A DNA stretch of 64,000 nt from Escherichia coli. GTDB taxonomy: Bacteria; Pseudomonadota; Gammaproteobacteria; Enterobacterales; Enterobacteriaceae. The position numbers and the translations under genes were made by a program. The stretch is from the NCBI RefSeq assembly GCF_024700885.2, contig NZ_CP117016.1; one strand, 5' to 3'. Below the pieces are notes generated by a model, which was given only the letters and a program-made list of their open reading frames with translations, was not told where the DNA came from and searched no databases. Positions 2,234 through 42,706 of the stretch are shown piece by piece (position 1 is the stretch's first letter; each line of letters starts with the position of its first letter).

Positions 2234-5558
<3,325 letters not shown>

Positions 5559-5559
<1 letters not shown>

Positions 5560-6932
5560 TGACCACGCGCCTGACTCGCTGGCTAACCACGCTGGATAAC
5601 TTTGAAGCCAAAATGGCGCAGTTGCCTGCGGTACGTCGCTATGGACGATTAACCCGCGCTACCGGGCTGGTGCTGGAAGCCACCGGATTACAATTGCCGC
5701 TCGGCGCAACCTGTGTCATTGAGCGCCAGAACGGCAGCGAAACGCACGAAGTAGAAAGCGAAGTCGTTGGCTTTAACGGTCAACGGCTGTTTTTAATGCC
5801 GCTGGAGGAAGTGGAAGGTGTCCTGCCCGGCGCGCGTGTATATGCCAAAAACATTTCGGCAGAAGGGCTGCAAAGCGGCAAGCAGTTGCCGCTCGGTCCG
5901 GCGTTATTAGGTCGTGTTCTGGACGGTAGCGGTAAACCGCTCGATGGCCTGCCCTTCCCCGATACGACGGAAACCGGTGCGCTGATTACCCCGCCATTTA
6001 ACCCGTTGCAACGTACACCGATTGAACATGTGCTGGACACCGGCGTGCGCCCAATCAATGCCCTGCTTACCGTCGGGCGCGGGCAGCGTATGGGGCTGTT
6101 TGCCGGGTCGGGCGTTGGTAAAAGTGTGCTGCTGGGGATGATGGCACGTTACACCCGCGCCGATGTCATTGTCGTGGGTTTGATTGGTGAACGTGGGCGC
6201 GAAGTAAAAGATTTTATTGAGAATATCCTCGGTGCCGAAGGGCGTGCACGCTCCGTGGTGATTGCCGCCCCGGCGGATGTCTCTCCGCTTCTGCGAATGC
6301 AAGGTGCCGCCTATGCCACGCGCATTGCCGAAGATTTTCGCGATCGTGGTCAGCATGTGTTGCTGATTATGGACTCCCTCACCCGCTACGCGATGGCCCA
6401 GCGTGAGATTGCACTGGCGATTGGCGAACCACCTGCCACTAAAGGCTATCCACCGTCGGTGTTTGCCAAATTACCGGCACTGGTCGAGCGTGCCGGAAAT
6501 GGCATTAGCGGCGGCGGATCGATTACCGCGTTTTATACCGTGCTCACCGAGGGCGATGACCAGCAGGACCCCATTGCCGACTCCGCGCGGGCCATCCTCG
6601 ACGGTCACATTGTGCTGTCTCGCCGACTGGCGGAAGCCGGGCACTATCCGGCTATCGATATTGAAGCGTCGATCAGCCGCGCAATGACGGCGTTGATCAG
6701 TGAGCAACATTACGCGCGAGTGCGCACCTTCAAACAGCTGTTGTCGAGTTTTCAGCGTAACCGCGATCTGGTTAGCGTCGGCGCGTATGCCAAAGGCAGC
6801 GATCCGATGCTCGACAAAGCCATCGCCCTGTGGCCGCAGCTGGAGGGCTATTTGCAACAAGGCATTTTTGAACGCGCGGACTGGGAAGCGTCTCTCCAGG
6901 GGCTGGAGCGTATTTTCCCGACAGTGTCATAA
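5559..6932 (+). CDS. fliI: Flagellum-specific ATPase FliI
   Basis: 457-aa ORF with Walker A motif GSGVGKS. Confidence 0.95.
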
Positions 6933-30053: not shown

Positions 30054-30580
30054 TGAACTGCACCCCAAATGTTGGACATAATCTGACATCTGAAGGTGCA
30101 GTTTATGAAACATTCATTTGAAGTAAAACTTGCCGCTGTAAATCATTACCTGGCTGGTCATGCAGGCATCATTTCTACGGCAAAACTCTTTCAACTTTCT
30201 CACACCAGCCTCTCACACTGGATTAATCTTTTTCTTCTTCACGGTCCTCGGGCACTGGATTGCAGACACAAGCGTAGCTATTCTCCTGAAGATAAACTTT
30301 GCGTGGTTCTTTATGCTCTCGGGCATTCTGAGTCTCTACCCCGGGTAGCTGCCCGGTTTAATATTCCCAGCCACAACACGGTTAAAAACTGGATAAAAGG
30401 CTACCGCAAATCTGGTAATGAGGCCTTTATCAGGCGCAGGAAGGAGAAAAGCATGACCCGTTCTGATGATACCCATGAAAACGAGGCAAACATGACGCCG
30501 GAAGAGATGAAGAATGAGCTGCGTTATCTTCGCGCAGAAAATGCATATCTGAAAGCCATGCAGGAGCATCTCCTGGAAAA

Positions 30581-31485
<905 letters not shown>

Positions 31486-33013: not shown

Positions 33014-33075
33014 TGGCGGAGAGAGGGGGATTTGAACCCCCGGTAGAGTTGCCCCTACTCCGGTTTTCGAGACCG
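33014..33075 (-). other. Truncated tRNA-Ser(CGA) serU, 3' 62 nt only; prophage attachment-site remnant
   Basis: Minus strand reads CGGTCTCGAAAACCGGAGTAGGGGCAACTCTACCGGGGGTTCAAATCCCCCTCTCTCCGCCA (anticodon loop to CCA end of serU as recalled); the 5' part (D-arm and acceptor 5' strand) is absent. Confidence 0.85.
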
Positions 33076-33665: not shown

Positions 33666-34997
33666 ATGATTATCAACCAGGTACCTATAAAAATAAAAAT
33701 CTTCATCTTTTTATTTTCATGCATCTCTATTATATTTTTGTTACTGCATGAAAATAATGGAATATACATAACACAAACAACACAAATAAGTTATAGTGTT
33801 TTCATTATTGGGCTTTTTTTCATAAACCTGATGATTTTTATTTTTCTATTGCTTTACTATGTTTCTAATCAGAGACAAAGTTATCTCTTAATTCTTTCAT
33901 TCGCGTTTTTGAGCAACACGTATTATTTATTAGAAGTGGCTATTATTTCTTTATCTCCGTTAGGTAACGATTTATCTACAATCTATCAGAAATCAAATAA
34001 TATCGCAATATATTATCTATTCCGTCAGTTCAGCTTTATATCTATAATCTTTCTGGCTGTTTATTCCACCAATGTTAAAAATAAAAGTGTTTTAGAAGAT
34101 AAAAGAAACATAATAATTGTTGTTTTGTCAATATTAATTCTTTTTATTACTCCGTTTGTAGCAAAAAATCTAAGCAGTGACAATATAAAATATAGTCTTA
34201 ATATTATACAATACTCGCTGAATCGTCATTTGTCGACGTGGAATATCGTGTACACCAAAATAATATCAGTATTTTGGCTTGTATTACTTATCAGCTCATG
34301 CATCAGCATACGTAATTACTCAAAAATATGGTTGTGTATAATACTTATTAGTATAGTGTCAGTATGCAATAATCTAATTTTATTGTATTTTATTGATAAA
34401 TCCCATCCTGCATGGTACATGACAAAATTTCTTGAATTGATATCAATGATTTATATCATTTCAACACTCATGTATTATGTTTTTAGGAAATTAAATCATG
34501 CTAATCATATGGCAATTCATGATCCACTAACGAATACATACAATAGAAGATACTTTATTGACTCATTGAAGAACATATCAAAACACCATGATTTCTCAGT
34601 AATAATGTTAGATATTGACAGTTTCAAAAGCATCAATGACAAATGGGGGCATCATATGGGTGATCAAGTCATAGTAATGGTTACCAGAATAATAAAAAAA
34701 TCCATCAGGAAAGAGGATATATTAGGGCGCTTAGGCGGTGAGGAGTTCGGTATTATCATTAAAGGTAATACTCAAAAGCTCTTGCTATCAATTGCAGAGC
34801 GAATCAGAAAAAACATTGAAGAGCAATGCTCGGAAAAATTATTATCGCATGGACCTGAGAAAATAACTGTCAGTATTGGTTGCTTTACTTCAAAAGAGAA
34901 TAATCTCAGTCCATCTGAAATGTTAGTCAATGCCGACAAAGCGTTATATCAAGCCAAAAGAACCGGAAAAAACAAGGTGATAATTCACTCAAAATAA
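33666..34997 (+). CDS. Membrane-anchored diguanylate cyclase (multi-TM sensor domain plus GGDEF), DgcX-like prophage cargo
   Basis: 443-aa ORF; very AT-rich (I/L/F/N/K/Y-rich) N-terminal membrane domain; C-terminal GGDEF domain with RLGGEEFG active site and upstream RKED I-site-like motif. Confidence 0.85.
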   Translation: MIINQVPIKIKIFIFLFSCISIIFLLLHENNGIYITQTTQISYSVFIIGLFFINLMIFIFLLLYYVSNQRQSYLLILSFAFLSNTYYLLEVAIISLSPLGNDLSTIYQKSNNIAIYYLFRQFSFISIIFLAVYSTNVKNKSVLEDKRNIIIVVLSILILFITPFVAKNLSSDNIKYSLNIIQYSLNRHLSTWNIVYTKIISVFWLVLLISSCISIRNYSKIWLCIILISIVSVCNNLILLYFIDKSHPAWYMTKFLELISMIYIISTLMYYVFRKLNHANHMAIHDPLTNTYNRRYFIDSLKNISKHHDFSVIMLDIDSFKSINDKWGHHMGDQVIVMVTRIIKKSIRKEDILGRLGGEEFGIIIKGNTQKLLLSIAERIRKNIEEQCSEKLLSHGPEKITVSIGCFTSKENNLSPSEMLVNADKALYQAKRTGKNKVIIHSK

Positions 34998-35070: not shown

Positions 35071-35199
35071 CTATTCGATAATGGGTACTGTTGGCCATTC
35101 AATATCCGGTGCAGTTGTTGTATTAACACGGTTCAGCAACACCCGATACTTCTTCCAGGCTTCCAGCAACGAGGTTTCTTCCTCCGTTGCATATACAGC
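35071..35199 (-). pseudogene. 3' remnant of a lambda-type tail-fibre assembly gene (tfa)
   Basis: Encodes [42 protein letters not shown], matching the recalled C-terminus of lambda Tfa; no Tfa-like N-terminus upstream in frame. Confidence 0.6.
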
Positions 35200-35209
35200 C
35201 CACCTTTTT

Positions 35210-35518
35210 TCACCCACGATTAACCAACAGCCAGACCAGCAGACACGCCACCACCGGCACAGCAAAATCCATCAGGCTTGCCACATCCCACGCGCGCGGA
35301 TCAAAACCGCCCCACCACGGCATATTCATTCGCTTGCCATGCCCGAACATTTCGATCCAGCGATATTCTGCCTGGGTGTGTTCACGCGCAATGAAGAACG
35401 TACAACCGGCTATCGCCCCGTAAGCCCAGTTCCCGGTAAAAAGACCAATCAGTAGCTGCGCAGCCACAGCACAAAGCGCATGAAGGAAAGGTGTTATATC
35501 CATTTTCATCCCACCCAA
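35210..35518 (-). CDS. Hypothetical small membrane protein (phage cargo)
   Basis: 102-aa track ORF with two hydrophobic segments; no family recognised. Confidence 0.45.
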
Positions 35519-35545
35519 TAAAACGGGGCGCTCGGCCCCTTAATA

Positions 35546-36586
35546 TTATTTAGACGCAAGCGCCGCATCAATTGCAGATAATCTTTGTCTTAATTCTGCG
35601 TTTTCTTCTTCCAGTGCTGTTATTCTGTCGTCTGACTCTCTGGCTACCTGAACAAGCAAGCCAGTAACACCAGAATAATCTACTGTGTAATAACGTTCAC
35701 CTTCTTCACCTTCCGATCCGCTCGCACCGTCCTGATATTTCATTACGGAACCTACAACTTCTGGGATTGCTTCCAGAGCTTCCTGTGCAATGACACCAGC
35801 ATAGGGCATACCGTTTTCTTTAAGCGTGTATGTATAGCCGTTCATTTTACGGATGCGGTCGGTTGCATTATCGATCACCTGAATGTTGTCTTTCAGATCC
35901 CGGTCGGAATGCTGGTTAAATGCGGTGGCATGACATGCACCATTAACGCTTAACATATAGGTGTTATCGGTATTTTTCTGCGCATAGAACATATAAGCGC
36001 CACCATCAACACCGACTTCATAAACAACAGGACGGCTGGAGTTGCCCCACAATTGAGCAGTAACACCAGCATAAGCGGTTCCCTGTGTGTTTAATGTCAT
36101 GGTTGACCCATGATTGGCATATTTGATCTGTAATGTGTCGGTGTAATCAAATTTAATAAGCGCGTTACTTCCACGCTTGCTGTATGACATAAGGCAGTTA
36201 CCCATTTTGAGGTATCCGCTGTCACCGGGAAAAATCATCGTACCGCCATAAAGGTTGGTAAAGTCCCAGCAAATGTTTGTCCCGTTATCGTTCAGGTTAA
36301 GGCGCGCCATTGCGTTACCTGGACTGTCTATCCATTTTTTGAGGTATAGTTCGCAATACGCATCCTCAACACCTGCCGTCCTGTGAGTTGAGCGGAGTTT
36401 TCTCCCAAATATAGCTCCGCTAGTTGGCAATACCTGCTGATACCATGAAGCAGACCAGTCACCAACGATTTCATCTTTGCTGTCTACATATAATTTTGTT
36501 GCGTAGCTTCCTTGATCGTTTTTTAATTTGCTAACGTCGGATTTTAGCGTTTTGATGTCATCAGGAATTACTGTCGATGTAGCCAT
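35546..36586 (-). CDS. Tail-fibre / tailspike protein with C-terminal intramolecular-chaperone (S74-like) domain
   Basis: 346-aa ORF; C-terminal region with YTYTLKENG...GVIAQE...YSGVTGLLV and a coiled-coil tail resembles self-cleaving chaperone domains of phage fibres. Confidence 0.65.
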   Translation of the reverse strand: MATSTVIPDDIKTLKSDVSKLKNDQGSYATKLYVDSKDEIVGDWSASWYQQVLPTSGAIFGRKLRSTHRTAGVEDAYCELYLKKWIDSPGNAMARLNLNDNGTNICWDFTNLYGGTMIFPGDSGYLKMGNCLMSYSKRGSNALIKFDYTDTLQIKYANHGSTMTLNTQGTAYAGVTAQLWGNSSRPVVYEVGVDGGAYMFYAQKNTDNTYMLSVNGACHATAFNQHSDRDLKDNIQVIDNATDRIRKMNGYTYTLKENGMPYAGVIAQEALEAIPEVVGSVMKYQDGASGSEGEEGERYYTVDYSGVTGLLVQVARESDDRITALEEENAELRQRLSAIDAALASK

Positions 36587-36595
36587 TTTTCTTCC

Positions 36596-36877
36596 TCACA
36601 TCCAGCCACGAAGTTGATGCTCAACAGCAACCACGTATTCATCGAATAATGACGATATTTGCGAATCATTAATGATGCGCACGTTTACAAAATATCCGTC
36701 TTCCTTAACACATACCGGTTCGCCATCTTCAGTCAGTTCTCCGGTTTCTTTGTACACGTTACCTATCACGTCAATAAGAATATCATCCTGCATCGACTCG
36801 TCATCATAATAGCCAGTACTCTCCATAAAGGCCGAAAAGTCGGCCCTGTCGGCAAATTTGAGTGTTAAATCTTTCAT
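36596..36877 (-). CDS. Hypothetical acidic protein in the tail-fibre cassette
   Basis: 93-aa track ORF tightly coupled to neighbours; no family recognised. Confidence 0.45.
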   Translation of the reverse strand: MKDLTLKFADRADFSAFMESTGYYDDESMQDDILIDVIGNVYKETGELTEDGEPVCVKEDGYFVNVRIINDSQISSLFDEYVVAVEHQLRGWM

Positions 36878-39249
36878 TAGATTGACTCCCCCACCTGAGC
36901 ATCAGTCAATGCCTTGTGCCATATTCTGAAATTCCTGACATGACCAAATAAATGACGTAACCCGGCTGTAGTCTGGCCTCCAATACGGATAATTGCGGTG
37001 TTCTGAATACAGGACCATGTGGTTTTTGTTTCGCTGGATATATGCCCGTTACTTACTGAGCACGTAGACTGCTCTGACTTTACACGCATCCCCATAACCA
37101 TTTTTTCAAGCGATGCGTTTTCGTTTACCCGTCTGTTAGCTCCTCCAATATCGCAATAAGGAAATCCGTCGTAATCTGTTGAACGACCGAAGCCAAGAAT
37201 AATAGCCGCTCCGGTTTGATGACCGCCGGTATCAAAAACACGTGGCGCTGCATTTGGCGTTTTATACCAGTTCTTATGTACCTCACAAAGAACCGTAAAA
37301 GGAAGATTATAAAGATTATTCTTAATTGGAACTGTAACTATATCGCTTGCGCGGGTCGCCGCCGTCGCTCCTGATATAATAAAAGATGATACACAAGGCC
37401 CATCTTCTACTTGTGGGGTGGCCAGATAAATATAGTCACCAGATACGGTTGCCCCGCTCTGCTTAGGAGAATACTGTATCTGAGAGCCTATTTTAAACTC
37501 CCCATCAATTGCCTGAATTGTTGCCTCTGCAAAAATCCATCCGGTAGCTTCGTCCTTTCTGACTCTCGCTGTAATTCTTGAGGCAGCACCGCCTGTCATA
37601 TTAATTTCAAGCGTTTGTGTATCAATATACGCATCACCAAGAAAAGTTGTTGCGCTACCGTCATATTTATCAAACCGGATACGCAACCTTACCTGCAGTT
37701 CTGTTTTAAAACGACATGAGGTTGTCACGTGTTTATTATCGCCTGAGACATCAACTGACTTTGTTGCAGCAATTGATGCCATATTAATGGCTGAGGTTTG
37801 CCCAATCAGAGAATCGTTGCAGACAAACTTTCCATAGGTAAAACCAAAATTATCCGTCCCTGTTTCGGGCACATCCATATTTGACGATCGCCCCCAACTG
37901 GCAGGGCTTTCCGAATTGAGCATGTAGTTTGTTCTTTGCCCCTCAATAAGCAGGCCATCACGTTCAAATCGTGGCTCGTCAATGGCAGCCTCTGTCAGCA
38001 CACCAGATTTGTTAATATAGGTTGCTTTCGATGCACGTTTAAACTTAACAATCTTGTCGCCAGGCATCGTTATTTCATCGTCACCAATAACAATTTTTTT
38101 ATATGACGGCGAAAAGCCCGTAATCATATCCAGTGAATCGTTAAACGGTATCCACACATCAGGCAGTGGCTGTAAGACATATTTATACGGCTCTGCTGCC
38201 TGACTTGCATACTCTCTGGCTGCGTCTTCACTTGCTTTAGCTGCTGTCTGGCTTGCTGCCGATGCTTTCGCCGAGTTCGCCGCTGCAGTCTCGCTTGTCT
38301 TTGCATTGGTTTCACTGGTTTTTGCCGCTTTTTGACTGTTGGCTGATGCAGTGGCAGAAGCAGCCGCCGCGCTTGCAGAACCAGCTGCCGCGCTCTCGCT
38401 TTGGGCTGCTGCAACCTGGCTGTTTTTCGCCGCAGTTTCGCTGGCTTTGGCATTCGTTTCGCTGGTCTTCGCTGCCGTCTGGCTGGACTTTGCGTTAGTT
38501 TCACTCGTCTTCGCTGCTTTCTGGCTGTTAGCCGCAGCAGTTGCTGCTCCAGCTGCTGAAGTCGCAGAACCGGCTGCTGCGCTCTCGCTCTCAGCTGCTG
38601 CAGTCTGGCTGTTTTTCGCCGCAGTTTCACTGGCTTTGGCATTCGTTTCGCTGGCCTTCGCTGCCGTCTGGCTGGACTTTGCGTTGGTTTCGCTCGTCTT
38701 TGCTGCTGTCTCGCTATTTTTCGCGTTGGTTTCTGATTTTTTAGCTGCTGTCGCGGAATTTGCCGATGCAGTCTGCGAGGCCGCTGCCGCCTGTGCGCTG
38801 TTAGCTGCATTCGTTTCTGAGTTTTTCGCCGCGTTCTTCGATGATGCCGCTGCAGTTTCGGATTTCTTTGCCGCCGCTGCGCTCTGAGAGGCGGCTTCAG
38901 CGTTGCGTGCCGCTTCTTCCACCATTACCTCAAAACGACGCAATGCCTCCGGCATGACATCCTCTTCCGTCATGGCACCGAGAAAATCATTCAGCGTGCC
39001 TGGTCTGGAACCTTCATAGACGGTAATGGTCCCGGCATGTGAAGGCGGAAAACCTTCAACCAGCAGGGTGACGCTGTACTGGCCATACTCAACATCCATG
39101 CTGTAACGCCCGGCTTCATCCGGATTTTCAGAGGCCACCGTATTCACCAGTACCGTGGTGCTGTTACGCTTTGCTTTGAGCTGAATAGTGCAGTTCTGTA
39201 TTGGTTTTCCTGCACCGTCTTTCAGCACGCCTGAAATCTGTACTGCCAT
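36877..39249 (-). CDS. stf: Side tail fibre protein, lambda Stf-like N-terminus with Ala/Ser/Thr-rich repeat shaft
   Basis: N-terminus MAVQISGVLKDGAGKPIQNCTIQLKA resembles lambda Stf; track ORF starts two codons earlier at 39255. Confidence 0.8.
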   Translation of the reverse strand: MAVQISGVLKDGAGKPIQNCTIQLKAKRNSTTVLVNTVASENPDEAGRYSMDVEYGQYSVTLLVEGFPPSHAGTITVYEGSRPGTLNDFLGAMTEEDVMPEALRRFEVMVEEAARNAEAASQSAAAAKKSETAAASSKNAAKNSETNAANSAQAAAASQTASANSATAAKKSETNAKNSETAAKTSETNAKSSQTAAKASETNAKASETAAKNSQTAAAESESAAAGSATSAAGAATAAANSQKAAKTSETNAKSSQTAAKTSETNAKASETAAKNSQVAAAQSESAAAGSASAAAASATASANSQKAAKTSETNAKTSETAAANSAKASAASQTAAKASEDAAREYASQAAEPYKYVLQPLPDVWIPFNDSLDMITGFSPSYKKIVIGDDEITMPGDKIVKFKRASKATYINKSGVLTEAAIDEPRFERDGLLIEGQRTNYMLNSESPASWGRSSNMDVPETGTDNFGFTYGKFVCNDSLIGQTSAINMASIAATKSVDVSGDNKHVTTSCRFKTELQVRLRIRFDKYDGSATTFLGDAYIDTQTLEINMTGGAASRITARVRKDEATGWIFAEATIQAIDGEFKIGSQIQYSPKQSGATVSGDYIYLATPQVEDGPCVSSFIISGATAATRASDIVTVPIKNNLYNLPFTVLCEVHKNWYKTPNAAPRVFDTGGHQTGAAIILGFGRSTDYDGFPYCDIGGANRRVNENASLEKMVMGMRVKSEQSTCSVSNGHISSETKTTWSCIQNTAIIRIGGQTTAGLRHLFGHVRNFRIWHKALTDAQVGESI
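38340..38720. repeat. In-frame tandem duplication (about 189-bp unit, 2 copies) inside stf
   Basis: Near-identical DNA blocks about 38341-38530 and 38530-38720 encoding repeated KTSETNAKSSQTAAK-type shaft repeats. Confidence 0.7.
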
Positions 39250-39307
39250 ATTCACTCCACAAATAAAAAAGGCGCCATTTCTGGCGCCCGTATTTGGGTT
39301 ATAAAAC

Positions 39308-42300
39308 TCAACTGATACTGATACCGGCTGTTGATTTCTTCATCACGACAACAAGAAGGTCGCTGATACTGGTCGTTGGCGTCCAGTTATTAGCACCATA
39401 TGAAGAAACATTGAAAGTCAGGGTGACATGACCGTGTCCGGCAGGCATATCAATGACGGATGAAAATACCCTGCTGACATCCGTCGCGGGTTGCTGAAAG
39501 ATTTCCTGTCCGTTCTTCAGCACCTGCAGCTTACAGGTTGAATACCAGTATGACTGTTGGTTGTTGCTGTTGAAGTTTTCATGCTTACCACCGCGAAACA
39601 GAACGGGTGGGATTACTATCTGACGGTCAAAAGCCTGATCATCGTACACAGTGACCGTTATTGTACCGCTGGCATAACTGCCATTTCTCGGAAAGGCTTT
39701 TCCCACCGTTTTGACAATATCACCTTCAATCTGGTTGGCAGACAGTTTTCCCAGAATCCGACAGTTCTGGTTAATCGTGACATTATTGAGCGTCCCGGAG
39801 TTCGCATTCACGTTACCGCTGATATCGGCATTTTTCGCCGTCAGCCGCCCGTCCGGTGTCAGGGAAAATACCGGAGGATTGCCGCCGCTGGTAATGGTGG
39901 GAGCCGTCAGATACTTCAGGAACACTTCGTTCATGAATATCTGGTTGCCCTGCGCCACAAACATCGGCGTTTCATTCCCGTTTGCCGGGTCAATAAACGC
40001 GATACGGTTAGCGGCAACCAGGAACTGGCTCAGTTTGCCTTCCTCCGTATCCTCCATGCTGAGGCCAAGCCCCGCGACATAATGCCTGCCGTCTTCGGTC
40101 TGCTCAATTTTGACGCCCCACATGGCATTCCATTTATCGTTGGCGTCCTTCCACTCTTTCGAAAACTCCTCCAGTTTGCTGGCGTTATCCTCCGTCAGCT
40201 CGACTTTTTCCAGCAGCTCCTTGCCGAGATGGGATTCGGTTATCTGACCTTTGAAAAAATCCAGGTAACCTTCCGCATCATCGCTCGCCCGACCGACAGC
40301 CTCCACGAATGCCGATTTGCCAACGGTGTTCACACTGCGAACGTAAAAATAATAATCATGACCCGGCTTAATATTGATACTGGCAGCTATCCAGTACAGC
40401 GCCGTGCCAAGATAGCGGGCTGTGGTTTCAACCTGCCTGATATCCGCAATCCGCTTTTCCGAGAACCAGAACTCAAACTGTACCGTCGGATCATAAACGG
40501 CAAGATGCGGCGTGGCGGTTATCTGAAAATAGCCCGGCGTCAGCTCAATCCGCGATGGCGCTGCCGGTGCGGCAATCCGGAACGATACCGACGCCGGATC
40601 GCCCTGCTGCCCCCACGCATTTACCGCCCGGACTGTCAGACTGTAATTTCCCAGAGCCAGCTGCCTGAAGCGGTATGTGGTTTCCGTCGTCCGGGCTGTG
40701 CTGACCAGCCGCTCACTGCCGTCATCCGCTGCCACGGTCAGGCAAAGCATAAAGCTCACGCCCTTCACCACCTTCGGCGTATCCCAGCGCGCCAGCACCT
40801 GGTATTCCCCGCTGTCTGCGGTGACTTCTGCGGTCAGGTGTTGCACTGCTGGCGGAGTGACACCATTCACCGTGCCGCTCTGGTCGCCGTCAAAGTGCGC
40901 CCCGTTATCCACGATGGCTTCTTTCTCCGGCACATGCTGCACGGCAGTGATGGCATACGTACCGTCATCGTTCTCACGGATACTCACGCAGCGGAACAGG
41001 CGCTGGCGCAGCGTCGGCAGCTTCAGCCCCCACACGCTGTATTCTGCAACGCCGTCAGGAACCCGGCTCACTTTCACCTTCACGCCGTCGGTGACGGACT
41101 GGACCTCCACGCTGACCGGATTCCCCTGTCCGTCAACCAGGCTTATCAGCGTGGTGCCGGAGGATGGCAGCGTGATTTCACGGTCGAGCGTCAGTGTCCG
41201 CGTCTGGCTGTTCACCGCCAGCACGCGCCCGCCGATGCTGATACCCGCATAGTCATCATCACAGATTTCAATGACATCGCCCGGTACATGGCGAAGCCCT
41301 TCTGCACCCACGCTGAAGTCCACGGTCTGCGTTTCCAGCAGCTCCGTTTTAATCAGCCACAGCCCGGCGCGGTGTGCCTGCCCCCGGCTGGTACAGCCAA
41401 AGGCATCCATCTTCGTGACGTTACGACCGTAACGGGCAATGGCCTGCGTATCTTCAACAAGCTCTGTCGCCGTCTCCCAGCCGTTATTCGGGTCAATCCA
41501 GTTCACCTCAACGGCATTATGGCGGTCCTTCAGGGCGCTGAAGCTGTAGCGGAACGGCGCGCCATCATCCGGCATCACCACATTACTGCGGTTATAGGTC
41601 CACACCTTATCCGACGGTCGGTCCTGCACGAACGTCAGCGTCTGCCCGTTCCATACCGGCATACAGCGCATCGCCGAGCAGAAATCACTGAGAACATCCC
41701 ACGCCTTACGCTGTGTGGTCAGCCAGGCATTACAGGTGATGCGCGGCTCCGTGCCACCAAAGCCATCCGGCACTGACTGATCGCAATACTGGCCGATGAC
41801 ATACAGCGCCCATTTGTCCACATCCGCCGCACCAAGACGTTTCCCCATGCCGTAGCGCGGGTGGGTCAGCATATCCCACAGACACCAGGCCATGTTGTTG
41901 CTGTATGCCGGTTTAAACGTCCCGTCCCAGATACCGTTGTATTGCCGCGTCTGCGGGTTATAGTTCGACGGCACCTGCAGAATGCGCCCGCGAAGATGAT
42001 AATTACGGCTCACCTGCTGGCTGCCGAACTGTTCCGAGTCCACCTGCACACCGACCAGTGCCGTGTTCGGGTAGCACTGTTTCACATCGATGATTTCGGT
42101 GTATGACGACCAGAGCGTTTTGTTCTGCAGCTGGTCTGTGGTGCTGTCCGGTGTCATCCTGCGCATCCGGATATTGAACGGGCGCGGCGGCAGGTTATCC
42201 ACCACCACCGAGGCCAGATACTGCGAGGTGGTTTTGCCCTTAATGGTGATGTCTTTTTCCGTCACCCAGCCACCGTTACGCTGTATCTGAACCAGCAGGC

Positions 42301-42706
42301 GGACTTCCGACGGATTCCGGTCCCCCTTTGAAGTGGTTTCCACCAGAGCCTGCACACCGAAGGTAAAGCGCAGACGGTCGATGTTTGCAGACGTGATGGT
42401 CCGGGTGATCGGCGTGTCATATTTCACTTCCGTACCCAGCACCGTCTCGGATCCGGAGGATTCAAAACCCTCCGGCGGTGTCTGCTCCTGCTCACCTGCC
42501 CGGAACACCACCGTGACACCGGCGATGTTGGTATTCCCTTCACTGTCCAGCACCGGCGTACTGTTCAGCAGCACGCTTTTTAATCCATCCACCGGACCTT
42601 CTATCGGCCCTTCGCTGATGGCATCGATCACACTCAGTAACTGCGTGGATTTCAGGTTGTCCTTCGCTTCGCGTGGGGTATGCCCCTTACTGCTGCCTTT
42701 ACCCAT
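39308..42706 (-). CDS. J: Tail tip host-specificity protein J
   Basis: 1132-aa ORF, the same length as lambda J; N-terminus [43 protein letters not shown]. Confidence 0.95.

Follow-up and report, generated by a model that had tools for sequence, protein, structure and literature searches.

What are two small proteins that belong to no described functional family doing among the tail-fibre genes of a prophage? This question is raised by the right end of a lambda-like prophage in a 64,000-nucleotide stretch of an Escherichia coli chromosome (contig NZ_CP117016.1, assembly GCF_024700885.2; hereafter, the window), where two open reading frames (ORFs), one for an acidic protein of 93 amino acids (aa; 36596-36877) and one for a small membrane protein (35210-35518), flank a gene for a 346-aa fibre (35546-36586). 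A first-pass annotation, made from the sequence alone, had described both products as unassigned and had proposed superinfection exclusion or receptor masking for the membrane protein; our analysis confirms its observation and partly supports its interpretation. Both ORFs are indeed found on the minus strand at these positions, and they are real genes, as demonstrated by their PHROG matches, their ratios of nonsynonymous to synonymous substitution rates (dN/dS) and their wide occurrence. The 93-aa gene is translationally coupled to the gene of a lectin-tipped fibre, co-inherited with the lectin module and retained in virulent phages; its product appears, from such sequence evidence, to be a dedicated accessory of that fibre (serving in its assembly, as part of a joint or in both ways) and not cargo. 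The membrane protein is encoded by an accessory, ‘moron’-type gene that many kinds of phage carry at the 3' ends of their fibre and spike genes, and it most likely represents a lysogenic-conversion or superinfection-exclusion factor. Taken together, these two assignments form the best explanation we can offer, and we consider its chances to be slightly better than even. The prophage features that the argument needs are listed below in the order of transcription.

39308-42706, minus strand: gpJ, prophage gene upstream of Stf.
36877-39255, minus strand: proximal side tail fibre (Stf), 792-aa ORF; RefSeq gives 790 aa from 39249.
36880-38166, minus strand: module of ~420 aa at the C-terminus of Stf (residues ~364-792), with a putative lectin domain of the ConA/LamG-like type.
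36596-36877, minus strand: candidate acidic fibre accessory protein, 93 aa, phrog_1361, WP_001544650; assigned from profile match, position and AlphaFold2 model.
35546-36586, minus strand: distal (second) short fibre, 346 aa; Peptidase_S74 (4.8e-14) and phrog_4563, tail fibre.
35525-35539, minus strand: GC-rich hairpin with a T-run after it, resembling a terminator and separating the distal fibre and membrane genes.
35210-35503, minus strand: predicted small inner-membrane protein, 97 aa, phrog_1443, WP_000355601; the ORF reaches TTG 35518 (102 aa).
35071-35190, minus strand: C-terminal remnant of a lambda-type tfa, pseudogene, directly 3' of the membrane-gene stop.

The ATG of the 93-aa gene overlaps the TAA stop of Stf (TAATG) and is preceded by a Shine-Dalgarno sequence, while the 346-aa fibre gene starts 9 nt past its own stop. 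The product is strongly acidic, as had been noted before (isoelectric point 4.05; 21 D+E vs 7 K+R), and through translational coupling it would be made together with the lectin-tipped fibre. Along its full length (residues 1-93 against 92 profile positions; 6.1e-46), it matches phrog_1361, a family of unknown function. The dN/dS of the gene is 0.16-0.29, and its close DNA copies were found in 987 of the 5426 complete E. coli genomes, being annotated as ‘hypothetical protein’ in every case. The family is also present in 179 phage records (tblastn), with divergent members of 88 aa recovered by profile (3e-29; hhalign 98%). Matches to this family and to the distal fibre appear in some records named as Campylobacter or Listeria phages (e.g., MG065692, OR847733), which are probably mislabelled or contaminant sequences of T5-like or rV5-like coliphages.

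We inspected 16 loci carrying the 93-aa gene. Among them were the window and HannyBb, phage 21 and PhiR40_1, KarlJaspers from Drexlerviridae, the Dhillonvirus rolling, JenP2 and SA126VB from Queuovirinae, the T5-like phages L6jm, NG_A1, T5_ev219, IrisVonRoten and AKFV33, and the rV5-like naswa and SYGMH1. In 16/16 cases, the gene is located directly 3' of a fibre gene, mostly overlapping its stop, and this position is constant across six phage lineages, both temperate and virulent. In all 12 loci tested, the upstream fibre ends in a common module of ~420 residues, carried on N-termini as different as the lambda, T5 LtfA and rV5 types. The rV5-type locus provides a natural swap: in rV5, the ORF41 allele ends in an S74 domain and is directly followed by the next tail gene, with no small gene, whereas in naswa the allele ends in the lectin module, and the small gene comes next. 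Moreover, five lineages of virulent phages (Drexlerviridae, Dhillonvirus, Queuovirinae, T5-like and rV5-like) carry the gene in intact form. Since the gene is tied to a single fibre module, whether the phage is temperate or virulent, we interpret its product as a fibre accessory in function, and the earlier view of it as an unassigned passenger has to be abandoned.

What, then, is the fibre that this protein accompanies? Stf is composed of an N-terminal tail-attachment domain (Pfam phage_tail_N, 1.5e-66; residues 3-96 match the Ur-lambda Stf structure 9e7m, 9e-49), Ala/Ser/Thr-rich repeats and the C-terminal lectin-like module. A Pfam search revealed no Peptidase_S74 domain in the 792-aa protein. 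The module is homologous to the fibre C-termini of phage 21, KarlJaspers, L6jm and naswa, the N-termini of which are unrelated, and it terminates in the conserved motif RHLFGHxRNFRIWHKxLTD. NCBIfam GTA_spike_fiber matches residues 436-636. Laminin_G_3 (PF13385) was the sole or top Pfam match in five of six module homologues, with E-values from 1e-5 to 0.02 and scores of 15-26 bits, all of them below the gathering cut-off of 27.6 bits. In an independent call, Humolli et al. 2025 (PMC11990801) termed the C-terminus of IrisVonRoten gp22 ‘galectin-like’. The ‘SETNAK’ repeats of the Stf gene (38124-38887) show an extreme AT skew and give rise to spurious ORFs of 228 and 182 aa in other frames and on the opposite strand; these are repeat artefacts and not genes.

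Neither small protein resembles Tfa or another assembly factor, exactly as the first-pass annotation had it: no sequence match was obtained in Pfam, NCBIfam, PHROGs or the PDB, and the structure search it had suggested gave no fold of Tfa or of another named assembly factor for either. Specifically, against Caudo_TAP (PF02413), neither the 93-aa nor the membrane protein gave a match at E <= 1. PADLOC returned 0 families at E <= 1 for the 93-aa protein. The only PHROG matches of the two proteins are two families of unknown function. The AlphaFold2 model of the 93-aa protein (24-sequence alignment; pLDDT, the model's predicted score in the local distance difference test, 86.5) depicts a small sandwich of the order beta-alpha-alpha-beta4-alpha, the tail of which is less ordered and ends in a conserved LRxW. 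Most likely, the 93-aa protein helps the C-terminal module to fold or mature, and it would then take the place of the S74 chaperone present on alternative alleles of this fibre. Still, ConA-like lectin domains often fold unaided, and this weighs against a chaperone role.

The second half of our proposal concerns the joint between two fibres. The 346-aa protein carries a C-terminal intramolecular chaperone of the Peptidase_S74 type (PF13884) and, at its N-terminus, the docking peptide MATSTVIPDDIKTLK; this motif is common to the second fibres of JenP2, L6jm, T5_ev219, NG_A1 and KarlJaspers. At ten loci, such second fibres are 203-576 aa long, start with the consensus M[AV]T[SK]T[VI]IPxDIxxLK and, in most cases, end in an S74 domain. 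When the same distal domains are found inside single long fibres (e.g., DT571/2 LtfA), the first ~26 residues are absent, which is why the N-terminal peptide looks like a docking element. The first-pass annotation was right that the two small genes flank this fibre gene, but its idea of a ‘replacement’ for Stf was rejected: the protein is a second fibre that bears a docking peptide, lies distally and is added to the main fibre as part of a conserved cassette. Where a distal fibre exists, the 93-aa protein probably also forms or stabilises the joint that receives this peptide. A side observation concerns KarlJaspers, in which a 225-aa protein (bas06_0035, 5270-5947 of the inspected locus) is annotated in BASEL as ‘putative lateral tail fiber chaperone’, as it is in VogelGryff. 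Owing to its docking peptide and S74-like C-terminus, the KarlJaspers protein more likely represents a short second fibre rather than a chaperone.

One might go further and regard the 93-aa protein as a purely structural adaptor, a virion component plugging the N-terminal peptide of the distal fibre onto the proximal one, with no folding role at all. A phrog_1361 gene precedes the docking-peptide distal fibre in 10/10 cases, including a divergent 88-aa member, and the absence of the first ~26 residues from single-polypeptide fibres fits as well. In addition, across 15 pairs, the identity of the 93-aa protein correlates with that of the first 30 aa of the distal fibre (r = 0.84), compared with r <= 0.43 for the end of fibre 1. 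These values count against our preferred combination and favour a joint role over a chaperone role, but the correlation could be due to physical linkage alone, since the genes lie only nine bases apart; when segments of fibre 1 were compared with the 93-aa protein in mirror-tree style, the correlations were weak and confounded by linkage, too. Furthermore, at least four lineages that have no distal fibre (phage 21 and many relatives, PhiR40_1, rolling and naswa/SYGMH1) keep the gene intact, and in DT57C the second fibre is reported to be attached to a first fibre bearing its own S74 domain (PMC4728585). Hence, we regard the adaptor-only scenario as a genuine but rather doubtful possibility, and we prefer to see in the 93-aa protein a fibre accessory that may act in assembly, in the joint or in both.

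The membrane protein raises a different question, beginning with its very start. The ORF given as a 102-aa two-helix membrane protein in the first-pass annotation is present, but its length probably needs correction: its TTG (35518) falls in the T-run of the terminator-like GC-rich hairpin, and RefSeq as well as the homologues start at ATG 35503 (97 aa, MDITPF...), which is most likely the start here, judging by this sequence comparison. The ‘two-helix’ description is approximate. Hydrophobicity reveals two strong segments and one moderate one, while AlphaFold2 (pLDDT 96.6) places three helices at 9-28, 31-58 and 79-101. The protein matches phrog_1443, again a family of unknown function (6.9e-59; residues 6-101 against profile positions 1-96 of 97). 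Close DNA copies of its gene are present in 1905/5426 complete E. coli genomes (35%), with up to seven per genome, all annotated as ‘hypothetical protein’; the dN/dS is about 0.15, and the family comprises 352 clusters at 50% identity in a library of 1.8 billion proteins. In an alignment of 105 sequences, R45, E46, W77 and P88 are invariant and H13, Q49, A50, E51, R53 and R63 nearly so, the family signature beginning with [FW]xxRE[HV][TA]QAEYRWI. The idea that both ORFs are decaying or hitch-hiking and functionless could appeal to their purely hypothetical annotation and to the degraded tfa next door; however, dN/dS values of 0.15-0.29, conservation of both proteins across phage families and bacterial classes and confident AlphaFold2 models refute it, leaving it a negligible chance.

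The loop between helices 2 and 3 (residues 44-78) carries on average 5.3 K+R, compared with 0.7 at each terminus. By the positive-inside rule, the conserved loop, H13, R45, E46 and D84 are placed at the cytoplasmic face of the inner membrane, so that, according to this model, the loop is probably cytoplasmic and almost nothing faces the periplasm. No relative was detected in Pfam, NCBIfam, PADLOC or the PDB, by sequence or by fold. In particular, GtrA (PF04138) matched neither the protein nor any of the 105 family members.

Where does this gene reside? The family is found in Escherichia, Salmonella, Citrobacter, Leclercia, Aeromonas, Comamonas and Halomonas. In 76 of the 80 close IMG/VR loci, from E. 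coli prophages, the gene follows the distal fibre, the 93-aa gene or Stf. Elsewhere, in the P22-like (Lederbergvirus) phages Gally and JEP4, it is located between the tailspike and the integrase; in the epsilon15-like phiv142-3, it (Orf5) comes after the tailspike, between the latter and the gp23-holin-endolysin block, where epsilon15 has its seroconversion genes gp21/gp22. In P2/HP1-like elements (Halomonas, Aeromonas salmonicida, Leclercia), it lies 3' of a fibre or fibre-assembly gene, in a Comamonas prophage after a giant gpJ and in a metagenome contig after a tailspike. Some of the fibres preceding it bear their own S74 chaperone, and because several partner fibres are thus equipped, the membrane protein is not a fibre chaperone. 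The Gally layout—a strong terminator, a promoter-like element, a good Shine-Dalgarno sequence and then the gene—is a classic moron layout. In the apparently virulent endosialidase phage ST1UNAM, the gene is reduced to a frameshifted stump; by contrast, the 93-aa gene is intact in virulent phages.

With such a distribution, the 97-aa protein most likely acts in the lysogen or the infected cell, where altering the envelope or barring entry would keep out superinfecting phages of the same general kind. The positively charged, putatively cytoplasmic loop might contact a conserved inner-membrane partner, for example the surface-glycan machinery. As a matter of speculation, the target would be something common, such as surface-glycan assembly at the inner membrane or DNA entry. 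The cargo-like character proposed by the first-pass annotation thus stands, with unrelated fibre and spike genes, four phage architectures and known conversion slots behind it, and an exclusion role is plausible from what the sequences indicate. Direct receptor masking, in turn, is unlikely, because little of the protein faces the periplasm and its partners are fibres and spikes of many specificities.

Several observations weigh against an exclusion or conversion role. The protein matched no exclusion-annotated PHROG and 0 PADLOC families at E <= 1. The phage 21 record quotes a TMHMM topology opposite to ours, with the loop outside, and one copy in Aeromonas rivipollensis sits among ordinary chromosomal genes. 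In the window, only the hairpin and about 20 bases separate the fibre gene from the membrane gene, and no convincing sigma-70 promoter was detected upstream of the latter. Tight or translational coupling to a late gene is seen in the window, in JEP4 and in the A. salmonicida prophage. With such coupling and no room for an own promoter, expression in lysogens is only putative.

Translational coupling to a late gene in several phages also makes it conceivable that the membrane protein serves the lytic cycle as a late inner-membrane function, either in the timing of lysis or in stopping progeny from ejecting into a dying cell. Translational coupling to late fibre or spike genes, or close adjacency to them, is seen in JEP4, phiHAP-1, A. 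salmonicida, Leclercia and metagenome contigs. The phiv142-3 copy is located two genes upstream of holin and endolysin, and large Aeromonas phages have intact copies. In lambdoids, however, the lysis genes are distant. No lysis gene was found near the membrane gene within the window, the context of which therefore lends no support to a lysis role. A weak Phage_holin_8 match was given by just two of the 105 family members (best E 0.0027). The degraded copy of ST1UNAM and the separate terminator and promoter-like element in Gally point away from the lytic cycle as well, and so does the fact that most phages with the same fibre, such as the virulent carriers of the 93-aa gene, lack the membrane gene. 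Overall, a lytic-cycle function seems distinctly improbable.

Another possibility is that phages picked up by chance a host-derived small membrane enzyme or subunit of a housekeeping type, acting on a lipid or a lipid-linked sugar. For a small phage protein, the sequence is conserved to an unusual degree, and the invariant R45/E46 and the near-invariant H13, Q49, E51, R53, R63 and D84 lie near one membrane face. The chromosomal copy of A. rivipollensis adjoins lipid A acyltransferase genes, and in two metagenome contigs the gene stands behind a SIS+CBS (sugar isomerase-type) gene. On the other hand, no Pfam, NCBIfam or PDB family matches by sequence or fold, and most contexts examined are phage ones, directly behind a host-recognition gene. 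We judge this origin even less probable than a lytic-cycle role; besides, an enzyme modifying the envelope would itself amount to lysogenic conversion, so the two ideas overlap. Thus, we retain lysogenic conversion or superinfection exclusion as the most likely role of the membrane protein.

Overall, the prophage right end carries a portable four-gene host-recognition cassette, composed of the lectin-tipped proximal fibre, the 93-aa protein, the distal fibre and the membrane protein. The first-pass annotation did not mention the remnant of the Tfa C-terminus directly downstream (35071-35190), which matches Pfam Caudo_TAP (1.6e-15; profile positions 95-130 of 131) and is a RefSeq pseudogene with ‘missing N-terminus’. 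The presence of this stump directly 3' of the membrane gene suggests that the cassette took the place of an older stf-tfa pair via recombination within tfa. The stretch 35071-35265 also gave a match below threshold to the Rfam small RNA (sRNA) family IS009 (72.8 bits vs a gathering score of 117). In HannyBb, an isolated phage with the same four-gene cassette, a DNA invertase gene is located just downstream in the opposite orientation (5537-6127 of the inspected locus), a hint that a segment for the fibre tip was once invertible, as in Mu, P1 and e14. A bolder scenario, which we consider unlikely at present, would see here a plug-and-play host-range cassette that passes from temperate to virulent phages and back. 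In it, a new kind of universal socket or cap would be provided by the 93-aa protein, maturing the lectin-tipped fibre and accepting interchangeable distal fibres via a docking peptide of 15-25 residues, and the 97-aa protein would represent a new and very common exclusion or conversion class, present in about one third of E. coli genomes, with a conserved step in envelope-glycan assembly or in DNA entry as its target at the cytoplasmic face of the inner membrane.

The surroundings of the prophage deserve a brief comment. Over the region compared, the window is 100% identical to E. coli strain MLI114. From left to right, the window contains msrQ, a copy of IS1397, zinT, an AT-rich diguanylate cyclase gene and the prophage right end. 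IS1397, an element of the IS3 family with two ORFs and a programmed frameshift, is inserted at 30096-31453 between msrQ and zinT. The gene at 33666-34997 (plus strand) encodes a multi-pass membrane sensor diguanylate cyclase (GGDEF) and is very AT-rich (27-35% GC); located between zinT and the end of the prophage, it converges on the late operon of the latter. It looks horizontally acquired, and since RefSeq annotates a capsid-gene fragment just upstream, it may be the cargo of an older, decayed prophage. A fragment resembling the 3' end of a tRNA or transfer-messenger RNA (33017-33068) gave weak Rfam matches and no tRNA with ARAGORN, and the segment 33376-33471 gave a sub-threshold match to the Shigella sRNA CssrB. 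Both may be integration-site remnants.

Both families are common. The 93-aa family occupies the lateral-fibre loci of phages that serve as models or are of the therapy type, including KarlJaspers, IrisVonRoten, KurtStettler and VogelGryff from BASEL and T5-like Salmonella phages, yet current fibre models leave it out. Engineering of host range by swapping these fibres probably requires that the 93-aa gene be moved, too. The membrane protein is among the commonest prophage-borne unknowns in E. coli, and its confident predicted structure and invariant residues make it a well-defined target for an exclusion or seroconversion test. If such a role were true, it would add a new, broadly distributed family to the few inner-membrane factors known for exclusion or conversion.

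Finally, we would like to place the two proteins among known systems. Our literature searches found no paper assigning a role to either family. Like the second genes of the pairs Stf-Tfa of lambda, S-U of Mu and gp37-gp38 of T4, the 93-aa gene is located directly downstream of, and coupled to, a chaperone-less fibre and travels with its C-terminal module. Unlike in these pairs, its product has no sequence or fold likeness to Caudo_TAP or another chaperone family, the fibre tip is a putative ConA/LamG-like lectin domain instead of an interwoven trimeric tip, and the real Tfa remnant lies further downstream. Further parallels are the two-protein branched or jointed lateral fibres of DT57C (LtfA/LtfB; PMC4728585) and IrisVonRoten (gp22/gp24; PMC11990801), in which the tail holds the proximal fibre, and this in turn holds a second one equipped with an S74 chaperone. 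Published AlphaFold-Multimer models seat gp24 on gp22 (PMC11990801). IrisVonRoten shares the exact gene order of the window, and its gp23 (92 aa per the GenBank record) is homologous to the 93-aa protein. Neither of the two papers assigns a role to the small middle protein; PMC11990801 labels the proximal fibre once Gp22 and once Gp23, and the small protein gp23 is otherwise undiscussed there. DT57C differs in that LtfA bears its own S74 domain, while the window differs from T5-like jointed fibres in that a temperate phage carries the cassette on a Stf N-terminus of the lambda type. By analogy only, the transient chaperone ‘caps’ of Alteromonas phage fibres (Gonzalez-Serrano et al. 2023, as cited in PMC11990801) offer a picture in which a small protein encoded behind a fibre might remain on the tip once assembly is complete.

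In Lederbergvirus and Uetakevirus, the membrane gene is found behind the tailspike, in the slots taken up by gtrABC of P22/Hf4s and by gp21 (polymerase) and gp22 of epsilon15. The latter protein is a polymerase inhibitor of 66 aa with two transmembrane segments, grouped here with the O-antigen polymerase inhibitors of the D3 Iap type, and is, likewise, a small membrane protein; homology between the two was rejected (hhalign probability 0.05%). In contrast to seroconversion genes, the membrane gene has no adjoining partner enzyme gene, and its product lacks a GtrA match. As a small phage-carried envelope protein, it resembles the inner-membrane superinfection exclusion proteins T4 Imm, P22 SieA and HK97 gp15 and the receptor blockers Cor and T5 Llp, and the genes of Cor and Llp adjoin host-recognition genes as well. 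Cor and Llp, however, are outer-membrane lipoproteins, each matched to one receptor. The membrane protein accompanies many different fibres and has almost no predicted periplasmic part. It matched none of the PHROG or PADLOC models of these five. A last comparison is provided by Gnarl proteins (PMC12373910), small (40-90 aa) stand-alone phage proteins that alter the O-antigen, of which Gnarl3 binds soluble GalU. Signature peptides of both window proteins were absent from the supplementary text of that paper (a text match; Gnarl sequences were not directly compared). In changing surface glycans without a known enzyme, Gnarl proteins might serve as a model for how the membrane protein could act, by analogy and not by family membership.

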